From NCBI GenBank assembly GCA_965203805.1, contig OZ241917.1, positions 2,592,001 through 2,656,000 on the forward strand: a stretch of 64,000 bases of DNA, in the 5' to 3' direction. The position numbers were made by a program, and so were the translations under genes. A model generated the notes under the pieces. It was not told the origin of the DNA, did not search any database, and saw nothing but the letters and a program-made list of their open reading frames with translations. This document shows, one piece after another, positions 119 through 58,468 of this stretch. The stretch is from Candidatus Latescibacterota bacterium. Its GTDB lineage: Bacteria > Latescibacterota > UBA2968 > GCA-2709665. How positions within the stretch are numbered: the stretch's first letter is position 1; each line of letters begins with the position of its first letter.

Positions 119-368
119 TCCCCCCACCACCGTCGCCGGCCGTTCCACATTTCGACCCTTCGGCGGGCTTGCTTCGACAAGCTCAGCACAAGCAGGGGCC
201 GGCTCGGCTTCTGCCTGCCTGCCGCCTGCCTGCGCCGCTGCGCTTCCCGCGGCAGGCAGGCGCTCCGCTTGGCGCAGGCAGGCGACTCCCCTCAAGGGGG
301 GAGTGATTGCGACGTGAATGCGCGACAGCCGGTGTCGAATGCGTCCACAGGGTGACGTGATTGCGAGA
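119..368. repeat. Composite palindromic (REP-cluster-like) repeat, copy A; direct repeat with 1577-1794
   Basis: Core 195-312 is nearly identical to 1620-1738. Contains nested CCTGCCTGC..GCAGGCAGG hairpins (214-282, inner 225-260), a CTCCCC-TCAA-GGGGGGAG hairpin and a 23-bp TTCGACAAGCTCAG element (171-193). Confidence 0.85.
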
Positions 369-1576: not shown

Positions 1577-1794
1577 CCCCCCACCGCATCAGCCGTCGCC
1601 GGCCCTTCGACAAGCTCAGGGGGCCGGCTCGGCTTCTGCCTGCCTGCCGCCTGCCTGCGCCGCTGCGCTTCCCGCGGCAGGCAGGCGCTCCGCTTGGCGC
1701 AGGCAGGCGACTCCCCCTCAAGGGGGGAGTGATTGCGATGTGAATGCGCGACAGCCGGTGTCGAATGCCTCCAAAGGGTGGCGTGATCGCGAGG
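1577..1794. repeat. Composite palindromic repeat, copy B
   Basis: Direct repeat of 119-368 with the same nested hairpins (1639-1707, inner 1650-1685). Confidence 0.85.
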
Positions 1795-7260: not shown

Positions 7261-7303
7261 CGGTTGTACGACCACCGCTGATTGCTTACCCATGGAGTCC
7301 TCT

Positions 7304-8776
7304 ATGAAATCTGTTATTGACCTCCGTCCGTACGTCCTCATCTTGACGGGCGTTTTCCTGTGTCTGTCCGCCCTGCCCTGTGATGCGAACCCTGCAGGCC
7401 TGCCTGCGCCGAGTTCTCTGCCTCGCCTGCTTCAGCAGGCAGGTGCTCGGCAGGCAGGCGGACCCCGGTTGACCCTCGAGGCGTGTCTGAGGCAGGCGCT
7501 GGCCAACAACCGGCAACTGGCGGCGGCCGGATTCGCCGCCGAAAAGGCAAACTGGGACCGCCGGAACGCGTGGTCGCAGTTCGCGCCGAGGGTGAGCTTC
7601 AATACGGAGGTGACGCGGATTGACGAACAGACGCTGGCCGAGCGGGACTTTTCCAGGTACTTTCCACCCGAGATCCCCGTACCGCAAGTGGCGTTCCGGA
7701 CCTCGTACTATTCGTCGTTCCAGGCGCACGTCCCCATCTTCGACGCGGAACTGATCAACGGCGTTGCCGTGGCGACCACCGGACAGTCCGCGGCCGAACG
7801 GACTCGAGAGGCCATCCGCGATCAAATCCTCTATCAGGTCACCTTCGGGTACCTGGAAGTGCTGAAACGCCGCGCGACGCTCGAACTTCAGCGGGAATTC
7901 CTCGTCCTGACCGGCCTGAACGTCAAAAAAGCCGAGAGGATGCACCTTGCGGGGAGATATTCGAAGCTGGACCTGCTGCGGTGGCAGGTGGAACACCAGC
8001 AGCAGAAGAGCAGCGTGGCCGCGGGAGAGTCCGCCTTGCGCGATGCAACGGTTCGCTTGCGCCGGCTGCTCAACCTTCGCGCGCTGGAGACGGACGCGCT
8101 GGCGGACGCCGTCCCGGACGTTCTCAACGCGGAGGCCACGCGGCTGGCGAATTTGTCTGAAGGTGACATCCGGCGGCTGGCGGGCGTGGAGAACCGGACG
8201 CTGGTTGAAGGGAACGCAGTACTCGCAGCGGCGGAACGGGACCGGGAACGCAGCCGCCTGGTCTACCGGGGGCAGGTTTCGAGTTACCTGCCCGACGTCT
8301 CTCTCAGCTATTCGACGGCCTGGCGCAGAAACGATACGCCGGCGCTGGACGACTACAGACCCTCTACGGTCATGGTCAATCTGTCGGTTCCCCTGTTTAC
8401 GGGATTCCGAAACCTCTCGCGTCTGAAGTCGGCGCAATTCAGCTATCTGGCGCAGGATTCGCACTTCTCCGATCTGGTGGACGAGACCCGGCAGTCGCTT
8501 GGCGAGACGGTCAACCGGATCGTCAATCTGAAGAACCAGCGCGAACTGATCTCGACCAGCCTTGCGTTCAATGAAAACAACTATCGGATCGTCTCCCGGG
8601 AAAAGACGCTGGGGCGGGCATCGAATCTGGACGTCATCGATGCGAAGCTGAACCTGCAGAACGCCCGGCTGCTGGAGATCACAACGCGATTCGACCTCGC
8701 CTCAACGGCGGTCGAATTTCACTACCTGATGGGCAGCCTCGACGGTCTGGTCGAGGAAATGGCGGAGTCGGAATGA
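7304..8776 (+). CDS. TolC-family outer membrane efflux protein
   Basis: Signal-like N-terminus, LTLEACLRQALANN, VNLSVPLFTGF; GGAG SD before ATG 7304; first gene of an RND operon. Confidence 0.85.
   Translation: MKSVIDLRPYVLILTGVFLCLSALPCDANPAGLPAPSSLPRLLQQAGARQAGGPRLTLEACLRQALANNRQLAAAGFAAEKANWDRRNAWSQFAPRVSFNTEVTRIDEQTLAERDFSRYFPPEIPVPQVAFRTSYYSSFQAHVPIFDAELINGVAVATTGQSAAERTREAIRDQILYQVTFGYLEVLKRRATLELQREFLVLTGLNVKKAERMHLAGRYSKLDLLRWQVEHQQQKSSVAAGESALRDATVRLRRLLNLRALETDALADAVPDVLNAEATRLANLSEGDIRRLAGVENRTLVEGNAVLAAAERDRERSRLVYRGQVSSYLPDVSLSYSTAWRRNDTPALDDYRPSTVMVNLSVPLFTGFRNLSRLKSAQFSYLAQDSHFSDLVDETRQSLGETVNRIVNLKNQRELISTSLAFNENNYRIVSREKTLGRASNLDVIDAKLNLQNARLLEITTRFDLASTAVEFHYLMGSLDGLVEEMAESE
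7399..7458. mobile_element. Nested CCTGCCTGC micro-palindrome insertion (60 bp, in frame) in tolC
   Basis: CCTGCCTGCgccgag..[cctcgcctgc ttca gcaggcagg]..ctcgGCAGGCAGG; removal restores NPAGGPRLTLE. Confidence 0.75.
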
Positions 8777-16526: not shown

Positions 16527-16549
16527 GTGACACACTTGGAGGGAACGCC

Positions 16550-17897: not shown

Positions 17898-18013
17898 CTG
17901 AGCCGCTCCCTGAGCTTGTCGAAGGGTCGGCGAAGGTGGTTAAAGAACGCCATATGGGTTACGAAACACGGGCATTTCGACAAGCCGTTTCGACAAGCTC
18001 AACGCACGCAATG
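17898..18013. repeat. Cluster of TGAGCTTGTCGAA-type REP-like palindromes
   Basis: ctgagccgctccctgagcttgtcgaagggtcggcgaagg (also at 36463-36524) and nested catttcgacaagc[cgtttcgacaagctcaacgcacg]caatg. Confidence 0.75.
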
Positions 18014-27961: not shown

Positions 27962-28082
27962 CATGACCCGGCGGGTCCGGAATTCACCCATTGCAGAAAG
28001 CGGTCGCGAAATGACCGGAAACAGCCGCTCGAAACCGCACGTTCCGCCGCTCGAGCGACCTCCGGTTTCGGCCAGTTTTGTA

Positions 28083-28111
28083 TTGACGAATTTCGCATAA
28101 ATCGTTATCAT
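28083..28111 (+). promoter_or_regulatory. Sigma70-like promoter of the frd operon
   Basis: TTGACG-N17-TATCAT. Confidence 0.55.
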
Positions 28112-28160
28112 AAGTGCTCTTTACGAAGGAACCGAACGCGATCCATCCCCGGGGACTTAA

Positions 28161-29870
28161 ATGGATACACCGATTCACGACGTGCTTCTCGTAGGCGGTG
28201 GCGCGGCGGGCTTGCGCGCCGCCATCGCCGCGGCGGAAACCGATGCCGGTCTGAACGTCGCCGTCGTCTCCAAAGTCTATCCCATGCGCAGCCACACCGT
28301 CTCGGCCGAGGGCGGCGCGGCAGCCGTCATGCGCGAGTACGACAATCTCGATCTCCACTCCTTCGACACGATCAGAGGCAGCGACTACCTGGCCGACCAG
28401 GACGTGGTCGAAGCCTTTGTAAAGGAAGCGCAGGACGAATCCATTCAGCTCGAACACTGGGGCTGCCCCTGGAGCCGGGATGAAGACGGGCGGGTCAGCG
28501 TACGGGCTTTCGGCGGGATGAGCGTCAAGCGCACCCTCTATGCGGCCGACAAAACCGGCTTCCATATGTTGCACGCCCTGTTTCAGACCTCCCTGAAGTA
28601 CAACGCGGTGACCCGGTACGACGAGTGGTTTGTCACGTCTCTTCTTGTAGACGACGGAAGGGTCTGCGGCGTGGCCGCGCTGAACATGCGCACGGGCGCC
28701 ATCCACGCGATCGGCGCGAAAACGGTGATCATCTGCACCGGGGGCGGCGGGAAGATCTTCCCGTTTACCACGAATGCCGCCATCAAGAACGGCGACGGCA
28801 TGGCCCTTGCCTACCGCATCGGGTGTCCGTTGAAAGACATGGAGTTCGTCCAGTACCATCCCACCGGTCTTCCCGGTACGGGCATCCTGATGACCGAGGC
28901 TTCGCGAGGGGAAGGCGGCTATCTGGTCAACAACAAGGGTGACCGCTATCTGAGCGAATACATCCCCGGCAAAATGGAACTGGGCCCGCGCGATATCCTT
29001 TCCCGCGCGTTCATGTATGAAATGCGGGAGGGCCGCGTTTTCGAAGGGCCCTATGGCAACTACGTCCATCTGGACCTGAGACACCTGGGCGAGAAAGTCA
29101 TCGACGAAAAGCTGCCCTTTGTCAGGGAACTGTCCAGGAACTACGTGGGGATCGATCCGGTCCAGGACGCCATCCCCGTCCGCCCGGTGGTCCACTACAT
29201 GATGGGCGGCGTCCATACCGATATCGACGGCGTCACGCCTATTCCGGGCCTCTACGCTGCCGGCGAAGCCGCATGCGTGAGCCTGAACGGCGCCAACCGG
29301 CTGGGCTCCAATTCCCTCACGGAGTGCCTCGTTTTCGGCGCCCGTGCCGGCAAAGTCGCCGCGCAGTACGCCAGCGGACAGGCGGCGCCCGGCCAGGGCA
29401 CGCTCGAGAACCTCGCCAGCGACGAGCGGATGCGCATCGAACGGACGTACCTGCAGCCGCGCAACGGCAAGGAACGCGTGGCGGACATTCGTACTGAAAT
29501 GCAGGCGGCGATGGAACGCGGCGCGGGCATCTTCCGTAATGAAGAGACGTTGAAAGAAACCTGCGAAGTCCTGAGGAACCTTCAGGAACGCTTTCGAAAC
29601 GTCGGCCTGGACGACACCTCGAGCGTATTCAACACCGAACTCACGGCGGCGCTGGAACTGGGATTCATGCTGGATGCGGCTGAAGCGCTTGCGCACGCCG
29701 CCCTGGACCGCAAGGAATCCAGGGGCTCTCACTCCCGCTCGGATTTCGAGGACCGGGACGATGAGACCTATCTCCAACACTCGTTGACCTATAAGACGGA
29801 AGCCGGCCCGCGCACCGACTACCTTCCCGTAACGATCACGCGCTGGCAACCCGAAGAGCGCAAATACTGA
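28161..29870 (+). CDS. frdA: Fumarate reductase/succinate dehydrogenase flavoprotein subunit
   Basis: [16 protein letters not shown] (covalent FAD His), [21 protein letters not shown]. Confidence 0.93.
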
Positions 29871-29924
29871 CGACAGGACGTGAGGCGCGAAATCCGGATT
29901 CCGGAACGTCCGCAAGGGGATTTC

Positions 29925-30674
29925 ATGAGCAACGGCAAGAACATCACCATCACCGTAACCCGCTATCGCCCCGAACAGGAAGACGAACCCGTCGAACAAT
30001 CCTACGATATCGAGTTTCAGGAAGACTGGGTGGTACTGGACGGGCTGAATCACATCAAGGACCACATAGACGGATCGCTCTCCTTCCGCTGGTCGTGCCG
30101 GATGGGCGTCTGCGGCAGTTGCGGGATGATGGTCAACGGCGAGCCCAAGCTCTCCTGCGCCGCTTTCCTGCGCGACTATTACCCGGGCGAAGTCCGCGTG
30201 GAGCCCCTGAACAACTTCCCCATCGTCCGGGACCTGATCATCGACATGACCGATTTTATGGACAAACTCAAGGCGGTGCAGCCCTGGATCATCCGGGAGG
30301 AAGAAAAACCCGTTTCGGAAGGGGAGTACCTGCAGACGCCCGAGGAGCTGAAGGAATACAAGCAGTTCAGCATGTGCATCAATTGCATGCTCTGCTACGC
30401 CGCCTGCCCGGTATACGGACTCGAGACCGAGTTCGTCGGCCCCGCGGCCATTGCCCTGGGGCACCGGTACAACCTGGACTCCCGGGACGAGGGACAGGAA
30501 CGGCGTCAACACGTCATTGCAAGCACCGAGGGCATCTGGGAATGCACCTATATTGGCGAGTGCTCCGTGGTCTGCCCCAAAGACGTGGATCCCGCGGCCG
30601 CCATCCAGCGAAGCAAGGTGGCCACGACAGGCGGCTGGTTCAAATCCGTACTCCTGCCCTGGGGGAAGAAGTAA
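29925..30674 (+). CDS. frdB: Fumarate reductase Fe-S subunit
   Basis: [33 protein letters not shown]. Confidence 0.92.
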
Positions 30675-30675
30675 G

Positions 30676-31086
30676 ATGATGAGCGAACAAGAGACCGAAC
30701 ACAAGGCCTACGTGCGTCGCGTACCGATCACCTGGTGGCTGCATAACCGCAGGTACTTTCTGTTTATGGTCCGGGAATCGACCAGCGTGTTCATCGCCCT
30801 GTTTATCCTGGGTTACCTGTACCAGCTCTTTCTGATCTCCAGAGGCGCGGAAGTTCACGACTTGTTTCAGGAGTCGCTCCGGTCCGTTCCCTTCGTCGTG
30901 GGCTATGTCATCGTGCTTCTGTTCGCGCTCTACCACAGCGTCACCTGGCTGGGTCTGGTATCGAAGATCCAGATCGTTCGCATCGGCCGCCTGACGGTAC
31001 CGCCCGTTCTCGTGGGGCTGGGCGCTTACCTTTCGTGGGTCGTCGCGTCGGCCGTCGTCGCCTGGATGTTTCTGAACTTGAAGTAG
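30676..31086 (+). CDS. frdC: Fumarate reductase membrane anchor C
   Basis: YVRRVPITWW...FMVRESTS, 3 TM helices. Confidence 0.85.
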   Translation: MMSEQETEHKAYVRRVPITWWLHNRRYFLFMVRESTSVFIALFILGYLYQLFLISRGAEVHDLFQESLRSVPFVVGYVIVLLFALYHSVTWLGLVSKIQIVRIGRLTVPPVLVGLGAYLSWVVASAVVAWMFLNLK

Positions 31087-31099
31087 CTTGGGGGAGACC

Positions 31100-31456
31100 G
31101 TGTACAAGGAAGACAGATCCGAACCCTTCTGGTGGGGCATGTTCTCGCTGGGCGGCGTGGTCGCCGCGCTGCTGATACCCGTCCACGTTTTCTTCATCGG
31201 GCTGGCCGTTCCGCTCGGCCTGATCGACGAGAGCCTGCTCGAATACAGCCGGATGAAATCCCTGCTTGCAAATCCCCTGGTGAAAGTCTACCTCTTTGCC
31301 CTCGTTGTCCTTCCGCTTTTTCACGCCGCGCACCGCATTCGCTTTTCGCTGCACGAAATGGGCATCCGGAGATTGCTGCTTTCGCTGGACGTCCTCTGCT
31401 ATGGCGGCGCCCTCGTGGGTACGGCCGTCACGCTGTACGTTCTGTTGGTCATTTAG
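31100..31456 (+). CDS. frdD: Fumarate reductase membrane anchor D
   Basis: RSEPFWWGMFSLGG, LPLFHAAHRIR; GTG start after GGGGAG. Confidence 0.85.
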   Translation: MYKEDRSEPFWWGMFSLGGVVAALLIPVHVFFIGLAVPLGLIDESLLEYSRMKSLLANPLVKVYLFALVVLPLFHAAHRIRFSLHEMGIRRLLLSLDVLCYGGALVGTAVTLYVLLVI

Positions 31457-38961: not shown

Positions 38962-40271
38962 GGAACCTCTGATCAACCAGAGGGAATGAGCAAGTTGTAA
39001 CTTATGGGTCGTTTCGGAGGCTGTTTATGTTGAGAGGGTCGTCATCTTTCGGGTTTGCACGGGTGATTCCGGCCCCGGATGCGCTCGGTGCCGGCCATTT
39101 TGGCCGCCAGCGTCCGAATTGGAGGCACGGGTGCCTATGTAGTAGCCAGTTCCTGACGTGCCATATGGAAGTTAGCCAAGGCAAACAAGGTGAACAGATG
39201 CGCCGTATTCTTCGCCAGACCGCGATACCTGACCTTTCGGTAGCCCCACAGGTGTTTGATGATCCCAAAGGGATGTTCCCTGTCTGCGTGCGTGAGACAG
39301 CACGCACAGGCAGGGACCCGTGCGCGCGTGCGATTGCTCTTCTTGTTGAACGAAACATCCGCGCAGTTGAGCCGCTTGCCCCGGCGGGCCTTGCGAAGCA
39401 CTCGCCATTCCACGTCGTTGGCTTCGGCCCGTTCTTTTCGCGTCTGATCCGCATAGGCCTTGTCGCCGTAGATGGTCTTTTCTTTTCCGTGCAGACAGGC
39501 ATCCATCGCCTGCGAATCATGCACCGAAGCGGGGGTGGTCACCACACTGTGCACCCGTCCCTTCACATCCGCGCCCACGTGCGCCTTCATGCCGAAATGC
39601 CACGTGTTGCCCTTCTTCGTGCTGGCCATTTCAGGATCCCGTTTCCGATCCTTGTTCTTCGTCGAAGAAGGCGCGTGAATGATCGTGGCATCCACGATCG
39701 TGCCTTCGTTCACGATCAATCCCCGCCTGGACAAGTAGCGCTTCGTTTGCCGAAACAACGCTTCCGTCAACCCATGGTGCTCCAGAAAGTGACGGAATTT
39801 GCAGATCGTCGTCTCATCAGGTACGCCGTTGATGTTCACACCCGCAAAGCCCTGCCTGCAGCAGGCAGGGACGCATCGACTCCACGTCGTAGAGACTGTC
39901 TTCCATTCCCGGATCGCTCAATCCATACCATTGTTGCATAAAGTAGATACGCAGCATCACCTCCGCACCGATCGGACGACCTGCCTGCGCCGACTCGGCA
40001 GGCAGGCGACCGTTGCCAGGTTTCGGATACTTCCTCTCAATCGATTTAAGCAGTATCTCCCACGGCAACACCGCATCCATCTCTTTCAGAAAACGTTCCC
40101 TGCGCGTCTGCTTCTTCTTCGTCCTGTACGCCAGATCCGAAAAACTCATTTGTTTCATCCCTGGGCCCCTCGTTCTATGTCGATCCATCAGAAATCACAA
40201 CACGACGGCTCACGCTCCAATTCTACGACTTTCTGCATGGCGTGCCAATAGGTAACTTAATCAGAGCTTCC
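38962..40271 (-). mobile_element. IS5-family element, complete with TIRs and 4-bp TSD
   Basis: TIR GGAA(C/G)CTCTGAT(C/T)AA at both ends; TCAA duplicated at 38958-38961 and 40272-40275. Confidence 0.9.
39135..40158 (-). pseudogene. IS5 transposase interrupted by three micro-palindromes (39279-39314, 39851-39869, 39980-40006)
   Basis: TRRERFL, PDETT, IVDATII, WHFGMKAH, GDKAY; the 19-bp insert causes the frameshift. Confidence 0.9.
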
Positions 40272-41845
40272 TCAAATAGATCAGCTTGCTTTGCCCGGCG
40301 CCGTGTAGCCCACTCGGGAAACAACTCGGCAACAGAATTCGCGGGGACATTTGCCAACTCCTTTGGCTCTAGCTTATGCAGTCCGCCTCCGTAGACGCGA
40401 CCCTCCCCGAGCATCACCCCCGGAGAGATTTCGTTCAGGAACTCCCACACCTGTCGCTTTAGTATGGGCATTTCCTGGATGGCGCGATTTAAGGGTTCTT
40501 TCGGGTACAACATCAAATACACGTTTGCGGCCGTTGCCTTGGAATTGTTCAATATGAAACGAAACGGCCTTCCGCTCTTCCTGTCGCTTCGGCCCAGATA
40601 GGTACAGACGTACGGAGCCGGCGGCCGGTATTCCTGTCTGTACCAAAGCGCACGATGCCGACAGATATAGCGATCACTTACGCCCTCCGCCTTGCCTTCC
40701 TCCAGATACGTCCAAAGACTTGGATAACGTTTCTTGATTTCGCTTTCCATCCACGGTGGATCGAGCAGGAACAATCGCAGTTTGAGAAGCGGATTGCCCA
40801 TTCGATCGCCCTCGACTTCGTCCTCGGGCACATATCTCGGGCTAGGAAGGATTGGCTTGAATGCATCCATAGGCAGCTGGCGCTGATGGATCTGCTCGGC
40901 TGACAGGATGAAATAGCTGTTGTTACCCGTAGCCAAACCCCGTTTTATCTCGAAAAAGTCACCCAGCACCGGTCCATCGGCTGCTTCATGGTTCTGACTC
41001 TTAGGATAACGTGTCCATTTTGGCTCACGGCGCAAAGTCTCGAGAGGAACCAATCGATCCAACACCGGTTGTTCTAGTGTTCCGCCATAGGTGAACCGAA
41101 CTTGATGCTGTGGTCGAGGAGGTTCGTTCCGGAACCACACCACAGCCGACGACACAAGCGCATCGCAGAATTGCACGTCATTCGGATCGAAGCGGTGAAT
41201 GTGATGAAGCGTCACCTTGTCGAGCAGGTAGCGCTTCACCGCTACCCCGTACTTCACGTCCATGAATTCGCTGGGGATCAACCAGCCAGCCAGCCCGCCG
41301 GCGGTCATCCACATATGACTTATGCAGAGGAAATAGCAATAAAGCCCGGCCAGACCGTTAATTTTCACGCCGGAAGCGGCTTGCGCGCGCGACCTTAACA
41401 GCTTTTTCTCCCCACTGTCAATATGGTGGTGCCGCACATAGGGCGGATTACAGATCAGCAGGTTGAACCGATCGGAAGCCTCTGGCGCATCGGCCCGCGT
41501 GAAGTCTTCCAATATAATTTCCAGACCCGTCTTGCCCCACAGCGTCGTTGCCGGCCTGCCGTAATGCGGATCTATCTCATATCCAATGGCAGCGTCGATA
41601 CGGGCTTGGGAAAACGCGTGCAGCAGCGCCGAATAGAAAGCGCCAGTCCCGATAGCCGGGTCGATGAAACGCAATCTCTCGTTCTTGCCGAGACGCGCCT
41701 TCGCGTATCGCTGAATATCGACAGCAAGGCTGGTTGGTGTAGCGAACTGCCCCATTCTGTTTCGTACGGCTGCGTCTCTTCTCGCATCCAGTTCTTCCTG
41801 AAGTGCCAGCCGCCGAGTCTCTAATCCTGCAACCGCCATATTCAT
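40223..41845 (-). CDS. N6-adenine DNA methyltransferase (Eco57I/TaqI-like) of a type II RM pair
   Basis: GQFATP, DPAIGTG, NPPY; C-terminus runs into the IS5 end. Confidence 0.9.
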   Translation of the reverse strand: MNMAVAGLETRRLALQEELDARRDAAVRNRMGQFATPTSLAVDIQRYAKARLGKNERLRFIDPAIGTGAFYSALLHAFSQARIDAAIGYEIDPHYGRPATTLWGKTGLEIILEDFTRADAPEASDRFNLLICNPPYVRHHHIDSGEKKLLRSRAQAASGVKINGLAGLYCYFLCISHMWMTAGGLAGWLIPSEFMDVKYGVAVKRYLLDKVTLHHIHRFDPNDVQFCDALVSSAVVWFRNEPPRPQHQVRFTYGGTLEQPVLDRLVPLETLRREPKWTRYPKSQNHEAADGPVLGDFFEIKRGLATGNNSYFILSAEQIHQRQLPMDAFKPILPSPRYVPEDEVEGDRMGNPLLKLRLFLLDPPWMESEIKKRYPSLWTYLEEGKAEGVSDRYICRHRALWYRQEYRPPAPYVCTYLGRSDRKSGRPFRFILNNSKATAANVYLMLYPKEPLNRAIQEMPILKRQVWEFLNEISPGVMLGEGRVYGGGLHKLEPKELANVPANSVAELFPEWATRRRAKQADLFEEALIKLPIGTPCRKS

Positions 41846-41848
41846 AAT

Positions 41849-42814
41849 CTACAATCCAAGCTCGCCGAGGTCGTTGATACGATGCTCCCAGACCCAGTCA
41901 ATGCCTTTCGCCGCCTCATAGCCGAGATAGCCGCTATCAAAATACCCGCACAGAAACAGAATGTAGCGCACGTTGTTCCCATAGGTCTGGCGAAGTTGGT
42001 TCATCTTGGTCGCTTCTTCTTTACGTCGCTTGTTGACATTCGTGAAATCACCCGCCGATTTTGCTTCAATCAGTATTGGTAAGTCCGCTGTCTTCGCCCC
42101 TTTGGGCTTCACAACCGCGTCCACAGGAATATTGATCGTCTCTCCGATCCCCTCCTGCTCAACCGGCACATTTAGCCGGAACGAGCAGGTTCCAGGACGC
42201 ATGGCGTCATACTTCGTACCACTACCCGTCGGCAGGTTTTCATACCTGAGTGCCTTTAACCATTTGTCAATCGCGGCAAGCTGACGTTTTTCCTGCGCAT
42301 TTCGGATGATTGGATTGGCAACGGCTCCGCACAAGCGATCAGCAACGATCGTCGCCGCCCGGTAGAATTCCTGTTCGGACGGATTGTCCCTACGTTCCAA
42401 CCAGACAAAGACATCCGGATCAGCCATCTTCTCGATGACCCTTGCAATCTTCTCAAGCTCGCCGTTCAGCTTCCGACCCGGCATTCGTGGCGGGAGTCTC
42501 TTATCTTTTTTCATCGATCTGACCAGGTTCTTAGAGACGCCGGAAAGGCCGATCAGCCGGTCCACGGCCAAAGGCGGGCACGTCGACATGCGTAATGACG
42601 GCAACACCGACGGTTTCGATCTCAGCAGTTCCACTCCGACATACGTTAAGTTCTTCGTCGCTTCAAGGGTCGCCTCGACGTCCTTAGCGGTTTGCGTCCG
42701 TGTAGCACGGTAAGCCTCCGGTGCAAAGCGCATAAACCAGTCGTTGAACATGTCCACCGACTGCGCAATGTCCTCTTTCCACCGGTCCGGTTTATCTCTG
42801 TTGATGGCCATCAA
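41849..42814 (-). CDS. XamI-family restriction endonuclease
   Basis: NPIIRNAQEKRQL, PVD..IEAKSAGDFTNVNKRRKEE (PD-(D/E)XK); 3 bp upstream of the MTase. Confidence 0.8.
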   Translation of the reverse strand: MMAINRDKPDRWKEDIAQSVDMFNDWFMRFAPEAYRATRTQTAKDVEATLEATKNLTYVGVELLRSKPSVLPSLRMSTCPPLAVDRLIGLSGVSKNLVRSMKKDKRLPPRMPGRKLNGELEKIARVIEKMADPDVFVWLERRDNPSEQEFYRAATIVADRLCGAVANPIIRNAQEKRQLAAIDKWLKALRYENLPTGSGTKYDAMRPGTCSFRLNVPVEQEGIGETINIPVDAVVKPKGAKTADLPILIEAKSAGDFTNVNKRRKEEATKMNQLRQTYGNNVRYILFLCGYFDSGYLGYEAAKGIDWVWEHRINDLGELGL

Positions 42815-43021
42815 TCCTTCTACCTTTTCTGAACTCCCAGCTTTGCGTGCCGGTAATGTCCCATCGTCTCATCACAAAGTTCCATCTGGTACGCACTTCG
42901 GATTGCGAATCACTTCTGATCTCGACCGCTGCTGCTCCGGCAGCCTTATTCTTACTTCCTCCGTGGACATCCGACCCGACAGGTCGGCCGGGCGCGTCTG
43001 GCGATTCCGTCCGTCAGGCAA

Positions 43022-43954
43022 TCACAGTTCGCGCAACAGACGATCGGCAACGGTGTAAGGATCGTCCTCTTCGGCCCGGATGTCTGCCGCCGCCCTGTCA
43101 AGAGACTCCGGCGACAGCGCTGCACTGAATCGGAGACGGAGCAGCGCCTCGACGCGCTCCTTTACTTCACGCCGGATCTGCCGCTCCCGAAGAACCGCCA
43201 GCCTGTCTTCCGCTTTCAGGTGACACGAGTACGCCCGGAGCGCTTCGTACAGCTCCCCGACGCCGTTGCCGCGCGTGCCCACCGTGCGCACGAGCCGCGT
43301 TTCCCAGCCATCGACCTTGCCGCGGGCGTGAAGGGATTCCGCGAGTTCTCCCGCCAATCCGGCAGCGCCGGGACGGTCGGACTTGTTCAGGGCAATCACG
43401 TCCGCAATTTCCATCACGCCCGCTTTCAGCACCTGGATTTCGTCGCCGGACTCCGGCACGAGGGTCAGCACGACGGCATCGACGCACCAGGTCACATCCA
43501 CGTCGGTCTGCCCGACCCCTGCGGTCTCGACGAGCACCACGTCCTTCCCCATCGCCTCCATCACCCGGATCGCGTCGCGCGCCGCGCGGCACAGCCCGCC
43601 CGGCAGACCCTCGTTCCCCATGCTTCGAATAAACACCGACGGATCGCCCGACAGTTCCTGCATCCGAATCCGGTCGCCCAGCAGGGCGCCGCCGGAAAAC
43701 GGGCTGGCGATATCCACGGCCAGAACGCCCACCGCCCTTCCGGCTTCCCGAAAGCGCGTTGCGAGACAGGCCGCGAGCGTACTCTTGCCCGCCCCGGGCG
43801 GGCCGGTGATGCCGATCCGGTAAGCGTCGCCCGTTGAAGGGTACAGGGCCGCAAGCAGGGGCGCCGCGTCGTTCTCGCGTCGCTCGATGAGCGAAATGGC
43901 GCGCGCCGCGGCGCGGACGTCACCCTTCAGCACCCGTCCGGCCAGGTCTCTCAT
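43022..43954 (-). CDS. meaB: MeaB/ArgK GTPase chaperone of B12-dependent mutase
   Basis: GITGPPGAGKST, GGALLGDRIRM, ETAGVGQ, NKSD. Confidence 0.92.
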   Translation of the reverse strand: MRDLAGRVLKGDVRAAARAISLIERRENDAAPLLAALYPSTGDAYRIGITGPPGAGKSTLAACLATRFREAGRAVGVLAVDIASPFSGGALLGDRIRMQELSGDPSVFIRSMGNEGLPGGLCRAARDAIRVMEAMGKDVVLVETAGVGQTDVDVTWCVDAVVLTLVPESGDEIQVLKAGVMEIADVIALNKSDRPGAAGLAGELAESLHARGKVDGWETRLVRTVGTRGNGVGELYEALRAYSCHLKAEDRLAVLRERQIRREVKERVEALLRLRFSAALSPESLDRAAADIRAEEDDPYTVADRLLREL

Positions 43955-44346
43955 TTCACGGCTTCCCGGAGACACGCGATGATATCGCCGGTATGGGTCC
44001 CGGGCCCCCAGAAGAATGCCAGCCCTCTCGCCTTCAGCGCCTCCCGGTCCGCCGGCGAGATGATGCCGCCGCCCACCACCAGGATGTCGTCCGCGCCCCG
44101 CTCCCGGAGGCGGTCCATCACTTTCGGGAAGATCGTGAGATGGGCCCCCGAGAGAGAGCTGATCCCCAGCACGTCCACGTCTTCCTGGATCGCGGTGTTC
44201 ACCACCTCGTCCGCGGTGCGGTGCAGACCCGTATAGATAACCTCAATTCCCGCGTCCCGCAGCGCGCGCGCCACCACCTTCGCGCCGCGGTCGTGCCCGT
44301 CCAGGCCCACTTTCGCAATCAGAACCCGTATTTTGCGACCGGACAT
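43951..44346 (-). CDS. Cobalamin-binding subunit of methylmalonyl-CoA mutase family
   Basis: GLDGHDRG (DxHxxG), SSLSGAH, GGGII. Confidence 0.92.
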   Translation of the reverse strand: MSGRKIRVLIAKVGLDGHDRGAKVVARALRDAGIEVIYTGLHRTADEVVNTAIQEDVDVLGISSLSGAHLTIFPKVMDRLRERGADDILVVGGGIISPADREALKARGLAFFWGPGTHTGDIIACLREAVK

Positions 44347-45095
44347 TTCGACTCCCGGACCTGAGCTTGTTCCTTAGTATTACTCGTGGCTAACCCACCG
44401 AGTACAAGCATCTATTCTTCAGCAATTCAAGCCGCCCAACCTGCTCGCCCAAGACGGAAGCGCGATTGAGTCGGGTTTCTTTTCCTATTTTTGGCTTGTT
44501 CAACGCGAAAGCGTTGTCCAATGCACGGCCGCAATTCCGGTCACCCGAAATATCAGTCCGACAGGAGTGCCAGAGTATCCGGATCGTATCGGTGAACCCC
44601 CTTCACCCTGATGCTGACGCCGTGTGGCAGGAAGTCACCGGCAAGCGGTTCGCTTGCTAGCTCAACGTCGAACCGGTCCGAATCGATGATCGAAAACTGC
44701 AGGCGGTGGTTGTCCGCAGGCCGATGTTTTCGTCGGCGGGGACGAGATTTTTCACGCTGACGGGGATTAAAGAGATGAATCGTGTAATAGACGAATTCAC
44801 AGGGAGATCACGGGCGGTTGCCTAGAACGACGCTATGTATAATCCGGAATCCTGACATTACGAAGAAGCGGCTCAGACTCCGCCGACAACCCGGAAACCA
44901 TCGTCAAGAAAATACCATCGGTTGCGTCCGTAGTACTTTCGGGGATCGGGCACATTGGAGGGGCAAATGGCGGCAGAGACACCGCTAGAGAATCTGACGC
45001 GCGGCAGAGCGGCAGATGGCTGGCATCGGCATGATGGATGTTCTTGTGGCACACACTTTCGGCGGAATTCTCCTGTATCGACACCGCCACGTCGA

Positions 45096-46373
45096 CTAGC
45101 CTACTGCGGACGCTGACGTTTGCTCCCTCTCCAACTCTACCTCTCCGTGCTCCTTCCAAAGCCGAACAACGAAGCGATCGTCCTGCTCTTCGAGGTCCGG
45201 TTCCGTGCCGTTATGCAGCCGCATCGATTCGATGATCCGGTTGCGAACCCCCATTCCCTGGTGTTCGACGTAGCGGTAGTCGCGGAGAATCTCCTTGAGC
45301 AACTCGTTGCGGGCCACCCGAACGACCCCCTCCCTCATCTTCTCCACGGTGACACCGTTCGGAAGCCGACCCGGAGAGATGACTTCGAGCCGATCGCTAT
45401 ACAACGAGACCTCGATGTCGGTGCCTTCGCGCGCGTAGTCACGATGCGCCACCGCGTTCACCACCGCTTCCCGTACCGCTTCGAGCGGGAAAGCCTCCTT
45501 GCGGCGGCGGCGGGCGTCTTCGAGCCACGCTTTGCTACCCATGTTGCGTTTCACGAAATCCACCGTGCGGTCGATCACACCTTTTTCGACCGCCGCACTA
45601 CATTTGGAGATGATTGAGACAAGCGGTCCGCGGATCCGCTCTTCGTCATTCATGTTGTAGTCCTTCTCTACGCCCGGGAACGCCGCTGCCGTCACGCCAG
45701 CCTGCGGCAGACGGCGGTTCGGGTTCTCGCCGAACAACAGAAGACCGGCCGCCGATGCGAGCAATTGATCTCCCACGGCTACCAGAAAGTCCGAATTGAG
45801 CAAAAGTCGCCGCCAGCTCTCAACGTCGGCGCGACCCGGGGCGGATCGGTTCAAGATCTCAACAAAGTAATTCTCAATCCTATCAAAGTCGAGGCACTCC
45901 AGTCCCATATCCGGTACCGCCTTTATCTCGTATCGAACCAGACGGGCGGCCTGATAGAGTCTGGCTTCCTCCTCTCGTGTGGCCCTGTTTGATTCACTGC
46001 CGACACGCGTGAACGAGACCCACGCCCCCCCTCGCCTTGCCTTGTGAGGTTTGCCGGGACTGTCGGCGGGAAGCTCGACTACGCCCACAATGCTGCCGTC
46101 TTCCATCGTTATGGAAGTCCATACCGGCGTCGTTGGCGGTTGAAGGTTGTTTCGAGCAATATTCATCACCCACTCCTCCGCCGTCTCGCGGTTCCGGGTC
46201 AGTCCGGTTATTCGCTGGTCCTTCTCCACGCCAAGCAGAATGATGCCTCCCTCAAGGTTCAGCAACGCCGACATCTCCTTCGCAAGAGAATCGGGATGAC
46301 AGTCGTCGCGTTTGAATTCAACCCTCGAGTTCTCGTCATTGGCGATGAGTTCGAGTAGTTCCGTTTTGTTCAT
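45096..46373 (-). CDS. Schlafen/AlbA_2 + HATPase_c_4 protein (no wHTH)
   Basis: ENSRVEFK, NLEGG, GVEKD, REAVVNAVAHRDY. Confidence 0.85.
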   Translation of the reverse strand: MNKTELLELIANDENSRVEFKRDDCHPDSLAKEMSALLNLEGGIILLGVEKDQRITGLTRNRETAEEWVMNIARNNLQPPTTPVWTSITMEDGSIVGVVELPADSPGKPHKARRGGAWVSFTRVGSESNRATREEEARLYQAARLVRYEIKAVPDMGLECLDFDRIENYFVEILNRSAPGRADVESWRRLLLNSDFLVAVGDQLLASAAGLLLFGENPNRRLPQAGVTAAAFPGVEKDYNMNDEERIRGPLVSIISKCSAAVEKGVIDRTVDFVKRNMGSKAWLEDARRRRKEAFPLEAVREAVVNAVAHRDYAREGTDIEVSLYSDRLEVISPGRLPNGVTVEKMREGVVRVARNELLKEILRDYRYVEHQGMGVRNRIIESMRLHNGTEPDLEEQDDRFVVRLWKEHGEVELEREQTSASAVG

Positions 46374-46376
46374 CGT

Positions 46377-49079
46377 TCAGAACCCGTACTTCCTGCGTCG
46401 CGTCTCAAAAGCCTCACGACCACCTTCGAGGATTTCCTCTACGAGCTCCCGAACCAATCGGGAGTCGATCGATCCAGCATGACCAGGCGCTACACGTGCC
46501 CGTCCGCCGTCTGCTTCACCGGCGGCCGAAAGTCCGAGAATGAGCTCGGCGTCGCCAAGGACGGGGATGTTCGCATTATGCGATGCGAAGATGAACTGTC
46601 GTCGTTGCTTTTCCTCCCGCATACGTGGGACGACGCCTTCGGTGATGAAACGGTTGTCAAGATCGTCCTCCGGCTGATCCACGATCAGTGGGGCGCCTGA
46701 TTCGAGTAGCAGAAGAAGCAGAACGGCAGTTGCCTTCTGGCCGGTCGACAGGTCATCAAGAGACTGCCATGCGGGCGGAGCGCCCGCTGGGGCGGTGTTG
46801 AGACGAATCGACATGGTGGGCAGGAGCTCCAGTTCCTCGATTCTCATAAACACTTCGTCCTCGCCGCTTGCGAGACGTTCCGCCTGACCGGGCGTGATGT
46901 CGTAGGTCTTGCGTAACGCGTTGGCGCCGGATCGGCATGCGCCGACGAATTGCGTAAGCGATAGATCGGGTGAGTGCCGCAGGCTCTCGATGGCTTCCGA
47001 CATGCGCCCGCCGATCTCGTCGCGCAGCATCTGAAAGAGCGGTTCACGGTTTCCCGCGCCCGTCACCTGTACCTGTACGCGGTTGCGAAGTTTGTTGCTG
47101 ACCTTTCTTGCGGCCTCGTCCAAGGCGCGGAACTCTGAGGCTTTGATATCTTCCCATTCCGCAAGCAGAGTTCGACGTTGCTCGGCATGTTCATTCTCCA
47201 ATCTCCGTAGAACTACCACGCGCTCTTGAAGTGGCCTCAATTCTTCGATCTGGCGGCGAAGGCCGATGAATTCCTCACCGTCCACGCGAGATTTCTGAAG
47301 TTCCCGCAGGATCCGTTCGTACTCGGCCTGAACTTGCTGCCTGCGCACGTCCCAGGTGGTCCGCACCTGGTCAATGCCGTGATCAACACGCATCAACGCC
47401 TGCTCCAAGCCGTCTGCAATGCGGCCAACTTCCTCACCCAGATCGGTGAGCGCCTTGTTCGCCTGGGAAAGAATGTCCCTGCCAGGCAGTTCCTCTAGCG
47501 CTTTCTCAGACAAAAATGCCAAATCAATAGGCAGCTCTCTACGCAAGATATCCAGTGCCTCACGGAAGGGCGCCAGACGTTGAGGAACGGAACCAATCAC
47601 GCGTTCCTCTCGCAAAAGCAGGCTTTGCTCCTGCAGACGTTCCTCAAGGCCCACTTCCTGGAATCGTTCAAGCGTTTCCTTCAGCCTGGGAAGCGCGGCA
47701 AGTCGCTCTTCAATGGAAGCAATCTCCGCGCGGGCGTCGCACAAGGCGCTTCGATTCCTGCCGAGGTCGCGCCTTACCGACGCCTTGCTACGTGAGAGCG
47801 ACTCATCCCGCTCGACGAAGCGATCAAGCAAGCGGGTGAGCTTATCAGGGCTTCTTGCAAGTTCGGAAATCTCGTGCTGACCATAGGCTTCGACTCGAGG
47901 TAGAATGTCCGCTGGCGCACGGTGTAGCACCTCGCCGCTCGCGTCCCGGACCAATGGCGGATTTGGTATGGTCCGCTCGATGCGATATTCACGAACCCCG
48001 GGGCGCTGGACGCGTACTCGAAGTGAAATCTTCGTCCCGTTGCGTAGCACCTGACGCATGATTCCGTCATGGGCCTTACGCGCTTCGTCGCCGATAGGAT
48101 CAAGTCCAAGCGCGCTGCGGATACTTTCGATCACGGTCGATTTTCCCGTACCGCGCCCGCCAATGAGCACATTCAAATTTGGATTGAGACGCATGGTCAC
48201 GCCATCCAGAAACCCGCCTTCCCAAGCGACAGTGATTATCTCAATGTGCTCGTCGGGCTTAAACTCGCCTTCCTTGGGGTTTAGTCGAATGCGCGATCCC
48301 GGATCCAGGAAGGCTTGGCGCAATCCGTCGATGGTGACTTCCTGCATCTTGATCCAGCAAGTAGCCGACCGACCATCTAGTTGTTCCGGTTTCACGATGT
48401 CCCTCGCATTGACTGCGGCGATTGCGACTCGGTGCTCAGGCGCGTGAATGCGACGGTAATGTGTATTGCTGTTCCTTACGATCTGACGGATATCCGGCGG
48501 CAGATCGTCAATAGCACCCGGGATTTGTACGGCAAGTAGATTTTCGTCCTTCCATGCGCGAATCCTGGCTTTCCCCTTCAATACTTCCAATAGACCGCCA
48601 TTCCCTGTTACGTGCGCTGCGATCAAAATCCCACCCTGATTGTGAACGGCTTCCAAGACTCCTGTAAACGGCTTATTGGCAAGATCGGAAGAGGGGTCGG
48701 TATCGTGTATGCCAAATTCACCGAGATACCGTTCGAGCCTATCGAGTTCCGTATCCGGGGAGTAAAGGCATAAGACGTGTACACCCTCGCTCGATGAGAG
48801 TTCAAAACCGGGGAAGATACGGACTTCGCGATTGCGCGCGGCGGACCGAAAAGCCGCGACCGCGCTGACACTATTGTGATCTGTGATAGCGAGCACCTCG
48901 ATACCGAGGTCAATAGCTTTGTCCACAATCTCCTGTGCGTGGCTAATCGCATTCCCATCTGACGGCTGCCCCCGGAAGGTACCGCCATAGTGGTGCGGGT
49001 TCACTTGAAGCGCACACTTGTAGAAACGTGCTCCCGAAGGTGCCCGAGCGTTTGAGTTGGTATCCGTCATCTCTTTCAC
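46377..49079 (-). CDS. PHP-domain + SMC/ABC-type ATPase (TrlF/Ppl-like)
   Basis: ITDHN, GFEL; Walker A GGRGTGKS; long coiled coil; LSTGQ, IVDQPEDDLD, SHNAN. Confidence 0.85.
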   Translation of the reverse strand: MKEMTDTNSNARAPSGARFYKCALQVNPHHYGGTFRGQPSDGNAISHAQEIVDKAIDLGIEVLAITDHNSVSAVAAFRSAARNREVRIFPGFELSSSEGVHVLCLYSPDTELDRLERYLGEFGIHDTDPSSDLANKPFTGVLEAVHNQGGILIAAHVTGNGGLLEVLKGKARIRAWKDENLLAVQIPGAIDDLPPDIRQIVRNSNTHYRRIHAPEHRVAIAAVNARDIVKPEQLDGRSATCWIKMQEVTIDGLRQAFLDPGSRIRLNPKEGEFKPDEHIEIITVAWEGGFLDGVTMRLNPNLNVLIGGRGTGKSTVIESIRSALGLDPIGDEARKAHDGIMRQVLRNGTKISLRVRVQRPGVREYRIERTIPNPPLVRDASGEVLHRAPADILPRVEAYGQHEISELARSPDKLTRLLDRFVERDESLSRSKASVRRDLGRNRSALCDARAEIASIEERLAALPRLKETLERFQEVGLEERLQEQSLLLREERVIGSVPQRLAPFREALDILRRELPIDLAFLSEKALEELPGRDILSQANKALTDLGEEVGRIADGLEQALMRVDHGIDQVRTTWDVRRQQVQAEYERILRELQKSRVDGEEFIGLRRQIEELRPLQERVVVLRRLENEHAEQRRTLLAEWEDIKASEFRALDEAARKVSNKLRNRVQVQVTGAGNREPLFQMLRDEIGGRMSEAIESLRHSPDLSLTQFVGACRSGANALRKTYDITPGQAERLASGEDEVFMRIEELELLPTMSIRLNTAPAGAPPAWQSLDDLSTGQKATAVLLLLLLESGAPLIVDQPEDDLDNRFITEGVVPRMREEKQRRQFIFASHNANIPVLGDAELILGLSAAGEADGGRARVAPGHAGSIDSRLVRELVEEILEGGREAFETRRRKYGF

Positions 49080-56390: not shown

Positions 56391-57231
56391 AGTGTCCTGT
56401 CCCAAAAATACCTCACCATTCTTCCGCCGATTCATCCCGTCTTTTGACGTTGCTTGCGCTGAGCTTGTCGAAGTGCCTTCGCTCGCCGACCTGCCCAAGT
56501 CGCCTGTTGGCGGACAAACACCCTTTGGAACTAACCTCTTGGGGGCCAAAGACTTTATCTCTTCCACCAACTCTCATTTTCTCTTCGTCCTTTTTCTTGT
56601 ACGCCCAAGAAAAAGGACCAAAAAGAACGGCGCCGCTCGGCGCGGGGCCGGTTTTTCCGTGAACCACCTCAGTGGTAACAACGGAACTATGCCGCCCTCT
56701 GACCGGAACAGCCGGTAACGAACGATGTTGCTGGACGGAATAGCACGGAAAAACCCCCCAATCCACAACCGGGCGGACTAAAGATCGTCCGGGGAGTTCA
56801 TCTTGGTGGATTCGCGATGGTCCGCCGTTTGTCTTTTGCTGTTTGCCTTTGCTTCGAGCTGACGGCTGTCCTCATCATTCAAGTGCCAATCGATCTACAA
56901 GGGTATTCGCTGACCGGAGGACTTTCAGAGCAGAGCGCGCGGTTCCGTCCAGCTACGCCGAACGATTGGTTTCCGCGGGTTTGAGGGCAGAGGATCCCGT
57001 GCGTCCTGTGAGTGGATTCGCGCTGTGCATATGGCAGGCCCCGCGCCCAGCGGCGACTTTTGGTTCCTTTTGGTCGCTTCAAAAGGAACCCGCCGGAGGC
57101 AGGGAATTTGGGGAGATGTGGACGTTGAATTTGAAGTTGGCTTTTGATTCAAGCCGACGGCTGGCGGCTGACAACTGATCGCTGCTTTTCTCCGGCCGAA
57201 TTCAGGCAACTAATTTCCGGGACAGAACACT
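56391..57231. mobile_element. Non-coding ~840-bp MITE-like element, copy 2
   Basis: TIR AGTGT(C/T)CTGTCCC (12/13 match); colinear with 15707-16526 except for a different middle segment. Confidence 0.72.
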
Positions 57232-57235
57232 AGAT

Positions 57236-57310
57236 TTGACGGCGTCTTGAAAAATGACTATATTATCGTCAAATTACTGCGAAAAATGACGACAACATAG
57301 TCAAATGACA
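57236..57310 (+). promoter_or_regulatory. Promoter plus duplicated TGAC-N9-GTCA operator-like boxes overlapping the start codon
   Basis: TTGACG-N17-TATATT; GAAAAATGAC-N9-GTCAAATKAC twice at 32-bp period. Confidence 0.6.
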
Positions 57311-58456
57311 ATTCCGCGTATATTTGACGCCCCCCGGAAGAGCTTCTTTCTCCTGGGACCTCGTGGCGTTGGAAAAAGCACCTATCTGCGACTGGCGTTT
57401 CCGGATGCGCACGTCATCAATCTGCTCGCCGAGGATACGTACCAGCGCCTGCTTGCGAATCCGGGTCTCCTTGCCGCGGAACTGCGCGCCGTGCCCGATG
57501 ACCGGTGGGTGGTTCTGGACGAGATGCAGAGATTGCCGGCGTTGCTCAACGAAGTTCACCGGTTTATCGAAGAAAAGCGAATGCGCTTCGTATTGTGCGG
57601 GTCCAGTGCAAGAAAACTCAAACGGGAAGGTGTCAACCTGCTCGCGGGCCGCGCCCTGAATCGCGCGATGCATCCCTTTACTCCCGAGGAGTTGGGCGAA
57701 CGGTTCGCGCTCGACGACGCCTTGCAACACGGACTGCTGCCCATTGTATGGGATTCGGAGGACAGGGCGGAGACACTGGTTGCCTATACGCAGATGTATC
57801 TCAAAGAGGAGATACAAGCCGAGGCACTCGTGCGGAATCTGCCCGGATTCGCACGCTTTCTCCCGGTTGCGGCGCTCTTTCACGGCCAGACCTTCAACGT
57901 GACCAACATCGCAAGAGAAGCTCAGGTTGCGCGCACGACAGTGACGGGATACCTGCAGATCCTGGAGGAAACACTTCTCTGCTTTCAACTTCCTGCATAC
58001 GAGACCCGATTGCGCGTGCGCGAACGCAAAATGCCAAAATGGTACTGGTGCGACCCCGGTCTCGTACGGGCGATGAAACGGGTCACGACGCCTCCCGCCC
58101 CGGAGGAGCGCGGCGCTCTCTTCGAAGGCCTGATTGCCCAGTTGATCCGTGCGTATACAGACTACCGTCATCTCTGCGACGTGTGCTTCTATTGGTCGAC
58201 CGCGGCGCAGACCGGTACTGAGGTGGACTTCCTGCTCAAGCGCGGCGGGGAATTCGTGGCAATCGAAGTCAAATCCGCCGGCGCGTTCGCGGAATCCTGG
58301 TGCAAGGGGCTGAGGGCGCTTACCGAGCTGCCGGGACTTTGCCGCAGGCTTGTCGTTTATCCCGACGGGCCTGAATTACGGACCGCTGACGGTATCGAAG
58401 TCCTCCCGTTTTCGCAATTCTCCAACCTGTTGGCCACCGATACGCTGTGGCCGTGA
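57305..58456 (+). CDS. AAA_14 ATPase + DUF4143 protein
   Basis: GPRGVGKS, LDEMQ, CGSS, LAGR, EVDF..AIEVK. Confidence 0.9.
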   Translation: MTIPRIFDAPRKSFFLLGPRGVGKSTYLRLAFPDAHVINLLAEDTYQRLLANPGLLAAELRAVPDDRWVVLDEMQRLPALLNEVHRFIEEKRMRFVLCGSSARKLKREGVNLLAGRALNRAMHPFTPEELGERFALDDALQHGLLPIVWDSEDRAETLVAYTQMYLKEEIQAEALVRNLPGFARFLPVAALFHGQTFNVTNIAREAQVARTTVTGYLQILEETLLCFQLPAYETRLRVRERKMPKWYWCDPGLVRAMKRVTTPPAPEERGALFEGLIAQLIRAYTDYRHLCDVCFYWSTAAQTGTEVDFLLKRGGEFVAIEVKSAGAFAESWCKGLRALTELPGLCRRLVVYPDGPELRTADGIEVLPFSQFSNLLATDTLWP

Positions 58457-58468
58457 GGGTATGCTAAG

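Follow-up and report, generated by a model that had tools for sequence, protein, structure and literature searches.

A family of short hairpin repeats was found in a 64,000-bp stretch of DNA from a Candidatus Latescibacterota bacterium (contig OZ241917.1, positions 2,592,001 to 2,656,000), referred to here in its entirety as the window, and three of its members lie within the transposase gene of one insertion sequence (IS) of the IS5 family at 38962-40271. The hairpins are discrete additions, which cluster within one another and which are represented by filled and empty alleles in identical or nearly identical sequence. They probably constitute a lineage-specific family of seamless mini-hairpins similar to repetitive extragenic palindromes (REPs), moved in trans by an enzyme acting on single-stranded DNA and kept in a dead IS copy by relaxed selection.

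Hairpin inserts in an IS5-family transposase and their repeat family

The host element has the features of the IS5 family, namely DDE_Tnp_1 (PF01609, 1.7e-23) with an N-terminal DUF772 (PF05598, 1.2e-6) on its two open reading frame (ORF) fragments as detected with Pfam, short terminal inverted repeats (TIRs) and a 4-bp target duplication. Its transposase is 97-99% identical in amino acid sequence to the intact 313-aa protein P0002, and relatives of this kind, of which many intact 313-aa representatives are present in the database, are named IS5-family transposase by their sources. When P0002 was compared with the window by tblastn, residues 1-87 were matched in one frame and residues 89-313 in another, and no stop or frameshift other than those due to the three inserts was found. 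The nearest DNA copies of the IS, L008 and L013 (91% amino acid identity), are from metagenome-assembled genomes (MAGs) labelled Latescibacterota, and their ends agree with those of the window element, GGAACCTCTGATCAACC (from 38962) and ...GAGCTTCC (to 40271). The parts of the element are as follows.

38962..40271, minus strand: IS5-family insertion sequence, 1310 bp, 82 bp of which are hairpin inserts
39871..40158, minus strand: N-terminal part of the transposase, matching residues 1-87 of the reference (313 aa) with 9 further aa inserted (tblastn)
39135..39848, minus strand: C-terminal part of the transposase, residues 89-313 plus 12 inserted aa, in the other frame (tblastn)
38962..38977, no strand: TIR at one end, one of a 16-nt pair that is 88% complementary and shared with L008 and L013
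40256..40271, no strand: TIR at the other end, same 16-nt pair, shared with L008 and L013
38958..38961, no strand: target-site duplication TCAA, left copy, read from the sequence
40272..40275, no strand: target-site duplication TCAA, right copy, read from the sequence
39980..40006, no strand: insert 1, 27 bp, in frame (LPAESAQAG), behind reference residue 51
39851..39869, no strand: insert 2, a 19-bp perfect palindrome causing a frameshift behind residue 87
39279..39314, no strand: insert 3, 36 bp, in frame, 12 aa (PACACCLTHADR), immediately ahead of the EHPF motif

Alignment of the DNA with L008 and L013 gave three gaps (27, 19 and 36 nt), all of them clean and with unaltered flanks, and it follows that no target had been duplicated. 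Folded as DNA hairpins, inserts 1, 2 and 3 gave energies of -10.4, -8.0 and -11.1 kcal/mol, with z-scores of -3.75, -2.16 and -2.58, respectively. An initial annotation of this DNA had described an otherwise intact IS5 transposase hit by three micro-palindromes, with intact TIRs and target-site duplication, in which excisions of 27, 19 and 36 bp would restore the protein. Alignment and folding agree with this description, its coordinates and sizes proved exact both by tblastn with P0002 and in the L008/L013 alignment, and TCAA was found on both sides of ends that match those of L008 and L013. The 19-bp insert alone breaks the frame; the IS copy is presumably no longer under selection, and inserts would be able to accumulate there.

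The three inserts have in common with the remainder of the family the stem CCTG[C/T]CTGC...GCAGGCAGG. The family 8-mer CCTGCCTG occurs 25 times in the window against 1.72 expected, a number reached in none of 100 shuffles, and the hairpin pattern occurs 7 times against 0.01 expected. The units are GC-rich and 19-36 bp in length, longer when clustered, and the top of the hairpin is variable yet self-complementary. A k-mer diagonal scan, used to compare the window with itself, showed the inner motif CGCCGA...TCGG to be common to several units. Insert 3 belongs to a subfamily with a T.G wobble on one strand (the T-variant, CCTGTCTG...CAGGCAGG), which is also found at 15994-16023; the presence of this subfamily at unrelated loci is an argument that the units were copied from masters. 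For inserts in other genomes, the T-variant was judged from the encoded LSA...QAG only. Outside the IS, the members in the window are the following.

214..282, no strand: hairpin cluster, 69 bp, with four half-sites (nested or interleaved)
1639..1707, no strand: copy of the 214-282 cluster within a direct repeat of about 190 bp, 96% identity
15971..16033, no strand: hairpin cluster, 63 bp, a 30-bp element within a 33-bp one, in non-coding repeat A
7399..7458, no strand: composite hairpin, 60 bp, in frame (20 aa) in an outer-membrane efflux gene

The cluster at 1639-1707, being carried in a direct repeat, is not an independent insertion and represents one set of events with 214-282. The composite at 7399-7458 was the sole member within a supported gene, matching the count of one in all core genes given by the initial annotation. 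A search of the window allowing up to three mismatches in the two arms yielded no convincing decayed members, a weak candidate at 4020-4072 being within the shuffle range, and an Rfam scan of the window returned a tRNA only. The hairpin pattern was present in 0 of 76 loci (1.43 Mb) fetched from other genomes with P0002 as the query, which indicates that the family is specific to the source lineage. Within the window, GC skew tracks gene orientation and was thus uninformative as to the replication strand.

Several further features of the repeats were observed. The best pairing at 214-282 is interleaved, with 214-225 pairing with 249-260 and 225-236 with 271-282 (each 12 bp and perfect), so that this cluster is not accounted for by one whole unit having simply inserted into another. 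The direct repeats of about 190 bp that carry this cluster and its copy (172-367 and 1605-1793, 94-96% identical) enclose a 308-aa ORF (574-1500) with a DUF772 transposase domain only, the 3' end of which is duplicated at 5084-5309. Unit lengths of 27, 30, 33, 33, 36 and 36 and composites of 60, 63 and 69 are multiples of three, the 19-bp unit alone being an exception; multiple-of-three totals were counted in 5 of 6 cases (P ~0.02, hand calculation), also in non-coding DNA, which hints that in a gene-dense genome the family has been filtered for survival in frame. Another short repeat, TTCGACAAGCTCA (exact over 13-16 nt), is present on both strands at six sites (172, 1605, 17910, 17989, 36491 and 56459), often close to hairpin clusters; it forms an inverted pair at 17911-18001, and its copy at 36491 adjoins a lone half-site, CCTGCCTGC, at 36480.

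Filled and empty sites

Two non-coding repeats, A (15750-16540) and B (56436-57245), are 81% identical, and A contains 63 extra bases that correspond to the hairpin cluster listed above. The empty counterpart in B was located by alignment and k-mer diagonals.

56632..56634, no strand: empty site in paralogous repeat B, the junction being ambiguous over GCC

As at the IS inserts, no target duplication was found at this 63-nt insert, the flanks being unrepeated. Both repeats are about 790 bp long, mostly non-coding and situated upstream of two genes, and they also have in common a conserved 32-nt hairpin, GTCCTTTTTCTTGTACGCCCAAGAAAAAGGAC, at 15925-15956 and 56587-56618.

Copies of the IS were then compared using the window DNA and protein-level copies from databases. 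Their inserts are distributed as follows.

Window copy: inserts 1, 2 and 3 present; no private inserts
P0145 (N-terminal fragment only): inserts 1 and 2 present, insert 3 not seen; no private insert in the fragment
P0146 (N-terminal fragment only): insert 1 absent, insert 2 present with an identical frameshifted tail, insert 3 not seen; no private insert in the fragment
P0130 (C-terminal ORF only): inserts 1 and 2 not seen, insert 3 absent; no private inserts
P0001/P0121: inserts 1 and 2 absent, insert 3 present; private insert of 9 aa at reference position 238
P0015 (sequence from reference residue 133 onward): inserts 1 and 2 not seen, insert 3 present; private inserts of 17 aa at 185 and 9 aa at 250

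Insert 1 is also absent from the intact P0002, and P0121 is an NCBI record labelled as a Candidatus Latescibacteria MAG. The 222-aa protein P0130 matches the C-terminal ORF of the window at 222/222 residues and has the same internal start, without the 12-aa insert. P0146 and P0130, both listed on a 2,520-bp contig, are probably parts of one copy. Across the copies, six distinct positions of the IS were hit. Among wider sets of relatives inserts were rare: those of at least 4 aa were seen in 2 of the 119 transposase relatives from the first search, hairpin-type inserts in one of the 23 members of the transposase cluster, and the insert-2 tail in 2 of 120 N-terminal transposase fragments. It had been proposed that a single inheritance would be revealed by all copies carrying the same three inserts; other combinations were found instead (P0146 with P0130, P0145, P0001/P0121 and P0015), indicating separate and partly very recent events and supporting a high rate of insertion under relaxed selection.

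All four presence/absence combinations were found for inserts 2 and 3, and copies 92-95% identical to that of the window carry insert 3 together with inserts of their own. The nearest relative of the window copy is P0002 (98.9%) and that of P0001 is P0003 (95.0%), both lacking insert 3, and despite these different insert-free relatives the window copy and P0001 have an identical 12-aa insert 3. The distribution of insert 3, which is shared among diverged copies, therefore does not follow the tree of the flanking sequences, a pattern that the initial annotation had left unmentioned. It requires that the insert was lost precisely, that the same unit was inserted repeatedly at one site, or that short tracts were recombined between IS copies. 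The four differences between the window copy and P0146 are all located at residues 34-42, a hint of mosaicism that supports the last of these.

A recurrent site was identified in the outer-membrane efflux (OEP/TolC-like) gene at 7292-8776 (plus strand), in which the 60-bp composite lies directly behind the signal peptide and is preceded by CCTGCAGG. In an alignment of 23 sequences, consisting of that of the window and 22 close orthologues, the site was empty in 15. It is occupied by 20 aa in the window sequence, by LSAALPAQAG in three sequences, by LSAAHPAQAG in three others, the sister of which (P0284) is empty, and by 7 aa in P0266, whose sister P0273 (97.2% identity) is empty; the orthologue P0265, 95.7% identical to that of the window, likewise lacks the 20-aa insert. 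With the repeat A/B pair and P0130, this makes three independent comparisons of filled and empty sites, and in none of them is a target duplicated. In a FastTree phylogeny of these sequences with the insert region masked, the filled sequences fell into four separate clades, and the 30 residues to the left of the insert were lineage-typical in each. The same codon position is thus filled in four separate clades of this alignment. Whereas IS relatives are labelled Latescibacterota, the named relatives of the efflux protein are labelled Gemmatimonadota.

Proposed mode of movement and rival explanations

Eight elements in the window could be compared at their junctions. A CpG lies within 1 nt of the junction at all eight (P ~9e-5), at seven the palindrome is lengthened by one G:C pair formed from the two bases flanking it (P ~6e-4), and a GTC^G junction is present on one strand at four, including all three IS inserts (P ~3e-5). 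As GTC already exists in the uninterrupted relatives at inserts 1 and 3 in the L008/L013 alignment, it is part of the target and not of the element. Beyond CpG and GTC^G, no motif common to all eight sites was found.

Scarless insertion beside a short motif, hairpin substrates, clustering in hairpin tops and filled/empty alleles together fit single-strand transposition of the Y1/HUH type. An unlinked enzyme capable of handling single-stranded DNA in folded form would move the hairpins in trans, candidates being a Y1/HUH transposase of the REP-associated tyrosine transposase (RAYT) or the IS200/IS605 'peel and paste' type. With an enzyme of this kind, insertion would be scarless and next to a short motif, and excision would be precise. 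Hairpins would then accumulate in the IS copy since it is no longer under selection, segment exchange by recombination among IS copies may allow one copy to gather inserts from others, and in genes, such as that of the efflux protein, only in-frame inserts in tolerant linkers would survive.

Several observations weigh against this mobile, REP-like family. No Y1/HUH or other mobilising gene was found by Pfam among the 115 ORFs of the 64-kb window, each element has a single hairpin as opposed to the two different end hairpins of IS200/IS605, and the unpaired GTAG or CGTC tag of classified REPs is absent from the elements. GTC^G was found at only four of the eight window sites; with the window's DNA as a proxy, it is missing from all three of the sites private to P0001 and P0015. 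The common origin of P0146 and P0130 depends solely on both listing a 2,520-bp contig, and protein data alone would not distinguish precise loss, same-site reinsertion and short-tract recombination from one another. Furthermore, the IS contains 3 of the 5-7 independent loci outside supported genes in about 10% of that DNA, and some real preference for the IS may therefore exist.

Although unlikely, the alternative to be taken most seriously is that insertions were few, each hairpin having entered the IS family once, and that the patchwork and the load were made by gene conversion between IS copies or by exchange of alleles between strains. This would account for the presence of all four combinations of inserts 2 and 3, for the identical 12-aa insert in copies 92-95% identical, and for the mosaic-like confinement of the differences between the window copy and P0146 to residues 34-42, with none in the C-terminal 222 residues. 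However, five residues downstream of the 36-bp insert P0001 keeps the V and Y of its own subgroup, as does P0003, so that any converted tract must have been very short, and the lineage-specific residues to the left of the efflux insert in each filled clade are likewise difficult to reconcile with exchange. First insertions at no fewer than six IS positions (at least six) and at unrelated loci would, moreover, still require a mechanism of mobility.

A more far-reaching interpretation, regarded as rather unlikely, is that the hairpins form the smallest known class of DNA transposons, with sizes down to 19 bp, whose insertion is site-selective and scarlessly reversible. A dedicated single-strand enzyme would read a specific target, whereby separate lineages would come to have the same codon filled independently, and it would also excise precisely, making insertion into a transposase gene in effect a reversible off-switch for the IS and providing host proteins with in-frame peptide variation.

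The initial annotation had offered two inferences, a high insertion rate visible under relaxed selection and preferential targeting that would silence transposons. The first is upheld by the varied insert combinations; the second, according to which hairpins are placed by preference in transposase genes through a function of the host or of the element, with inactivation of ISs as the result, is quite doubtful. In its favor, a corrected gene map, in which non-coding DNA makes up about 10.1 kb of the window and the IS 1.23 kb, places three hairpin loci in the IS, compared with two clear loci and up to two half-site remnants in the remaining non-coding DNA, an excess with a binomial P of 0.016-0.085, the value varying with the way of counting loci; further copies of this IS hold 2-3 inserts each, at six distinct positions overall, and the window copy shows little other decay (222/222 aa identical to P0130). 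However, the cluster was itself the reason for selecting the region, which makes the density test post hoc; the excess is nominal, and the non-coding DNA used for comparison is not neutral. The search also favored insert-bearing copies, because the query contained the 12-aa insert. A second transposase-like remnant (574-1500) has no internal hairpin, hairpins are also present in non-coding repeats and at the recurrently filled site of the efflux gene, and GTCG, at 12.2 per kb in the IS, is no more common there than in non-coding (14.4) or coding DNA (13.6). Relaxed selection, recombination among IS copies and high turnover explain the load without targeting.

It is very improbable that the palindromes were made in place as by-products of replication or repair (template switching or hairpin-end processing) and are not copies of a repeat family. 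The variable hairpin tops do remain self-complementary, the 7-mer GCGTGCG of the 36-bp insert recurs in the flank, and CCTGCAGG stands ahead of the efflux site; the 9-bp stem, CGCCGA...TCGG and the T.G-wobble variant nevertheless recur at unrelated loci and in other genomes, and the pre-insertion sequences of L008 and L013 contain no stem seed. Copying of the hairpin interior from the flank was dropped as an explanation for the same reasons, namely recurrence of the stem and inner motifs at unrelated loci and the lack of a seed in empty sites. A single old inheritance of the three inserts, for which the possession of inserts 1 and 2 by P0145 and of insert 3 by P0001 and P0015 could be cited, or an artefact of sequencing or assembly, has practically no likelihood and was ruled out by the differing insert combinations, by P0130, which is identical except for insert 3, and by the filled and empty efflux orthologues, the inserts moreover being present in independent assemblies, including the NCBI record P0121, and in frame in a conserved gene, and the hairpin motif not being known to match any sequencing adaptor.

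Relation to known repeats, genomic setting and significance

The mini-hairpins act in the manner of REPs or of cyanobacterial small dispersed repeats. REPs and REPINs are GC-rich palindromes of 20-40 bp with many copies, subfamilies differing in the stem top and loop, and clusters; units of 19-36 bp, and 25 copies of the 8-mer against 1.7 expected, agree with this in size and repetition. REPs are occasionally intragenic, residing in frame and sometimes at about the same site in related species (PMC3733652), and a GTC abuts the hairpin at four of the eight window sites. An unpaired GTAG or CGTC tag borne by the element itself was, however, not found, as there is no GTAG and GTC, at inserts 1 and 3, belongs to the target. 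REP families without a dedicated transposase ('CGTC-tagged') have been described (Di Nocera et al. 2013, PMC3733652), although the stems described there start with AT, in contrast to the (CCTG)2C of the window. The stem 6-mer CCTGCC / GGCAGG is absent from the text of that article, whose supplementary REP lists might hold a related family. Mobilisation of REPs by single-strand transposition of the RAYT type has been proposed (PMC3733652; Bertels and Rainey 2011, PMC3116915), and no match to RAYT or Y1_Tnp was obtained with Pfam in the 115 ORFs of the 64-kb window. A further difference is that single window hairpins, down to 19 bp, appear to move.

Transposition by 'peel and paste' is established for elements of the IS200/IS605 type, which are excised precisely and integrate at a specific target in single-stranded DNA (Lavatine et al. 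2016, PMC5027513). Scarless insertion of 27, 19, 36 and 63 nt beside a short motif, without target duplication, and the use of hairpin substrates are reminiscent of these elements, and precise excision of this kind would explain the empty alleles in otherwise identical sequence. IS200/IS605 elements, however, measure hundreds of bp, encode TnpA and possess two subterminal hairpins that differ from each other, whereas the window units are single, near-perfect palindromes of 19-36 bp with no coding capacity. In place of a specific tetra- or pentanucleotide target, GTC^G was seen here at four of eight sites and a junction CpG at all eight, with no motif common to all.

The likeness to MITEs, the miniature transposable elements with inverted repeats, extends to small size, lack of autonomy and inverted symmetry, but MITEs duplicate their target and have ends matching a parent IS, whereas the hairpins insert without duplication and their ends are unrelated to those of the IS5 element. 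The small dispersed repeats of cyanobacteria, from the 2008 work of Elhai and coworkers, reportedly consist of nested hairpin units of 21-27 nt, the mobility of which was inferred from copies with and without the unit; they come from a different phylum and differ in sequence from the window hairpins. To our knowledge, neither recurrent filling of the same codon nor in-frame transposase inserts have been reported for them. Rickettsia palindromic elements (RPEs) are palindromic repeats that lie in frame in protein genes and add peptide segments (PMC3733652). The mini-hairpins are similar to RPEs in being in-frame palindromic repeats within coding genes. RPE-1 is longer, at about 100-150 bp, and RPEs are found in the reduced genomes of obligate intracellular bacteria; we know of no filled/empty turnover of the present kind among them. 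A literature search, judged from titles and abstract openings, turned up no work on such repeats in Latescibacterota, and the papers searched gave no account of this stem or of this lineage as a host, of a 19-bp unit, of direct evidence of turnover or of repeated filling of the same codon.

The IS itself is inserted about 8 codons ahead of the natural stop of an Eco57I-type methyltransferase gene (40223-42814 region), the ORF of which now terminates on 16 residues encoded by the IS; a XamI-family restriction endonuclease gene (41849-42814) adjoins it. The window looks rich in defence genes and repeats, with defence-type genes at 3157-6756, 14306-14719, 40223-49079 and 57305-58729. These comprise two DUF4143 ATPases, two Schlafen/AlbA_2-HATPase_c_4 proteins, a PIN protein, the restriction-modification pair, a 900-aa PHP + AAA_21/AAA_23 protein and an antitoxin-like gene. 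A small DUF2283 gene (7045-7260 and its paralogue) is carried by a duplicated segment (4813-4956 and 7035-7178) located upstream of both a Schlafen/AlbA_2 gene and the efflux operon. The longest ORF of its region, at 27984-30704 (minus strand, 906 aa), has no Pfam match and adjoins the genes for fumarate reductase C and D (30451-31456, plus strand); possibly, this ORF is an antisense artefact of frd genes located upstream.

The conclusions of PMC3733652 pose as open questions the continued movement of single REP-like hairpins and the agent by which families lacking a transposase of their own are moved. In the present repeats, filled and empty alleles occur naturally at loci of three kinds, namely in an IS, in a core gene and in a non-coding repeat, and with such alleles, the lack of target duplication and the repeated occupancy of sites, both the mechanism and the rate become directly testable. 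Inserts of as little as 19 bp can knock out transposase genes, which a gene caller reads as a frameshift, and host proteins gain repeat-encoded segments of 7-20 residues.

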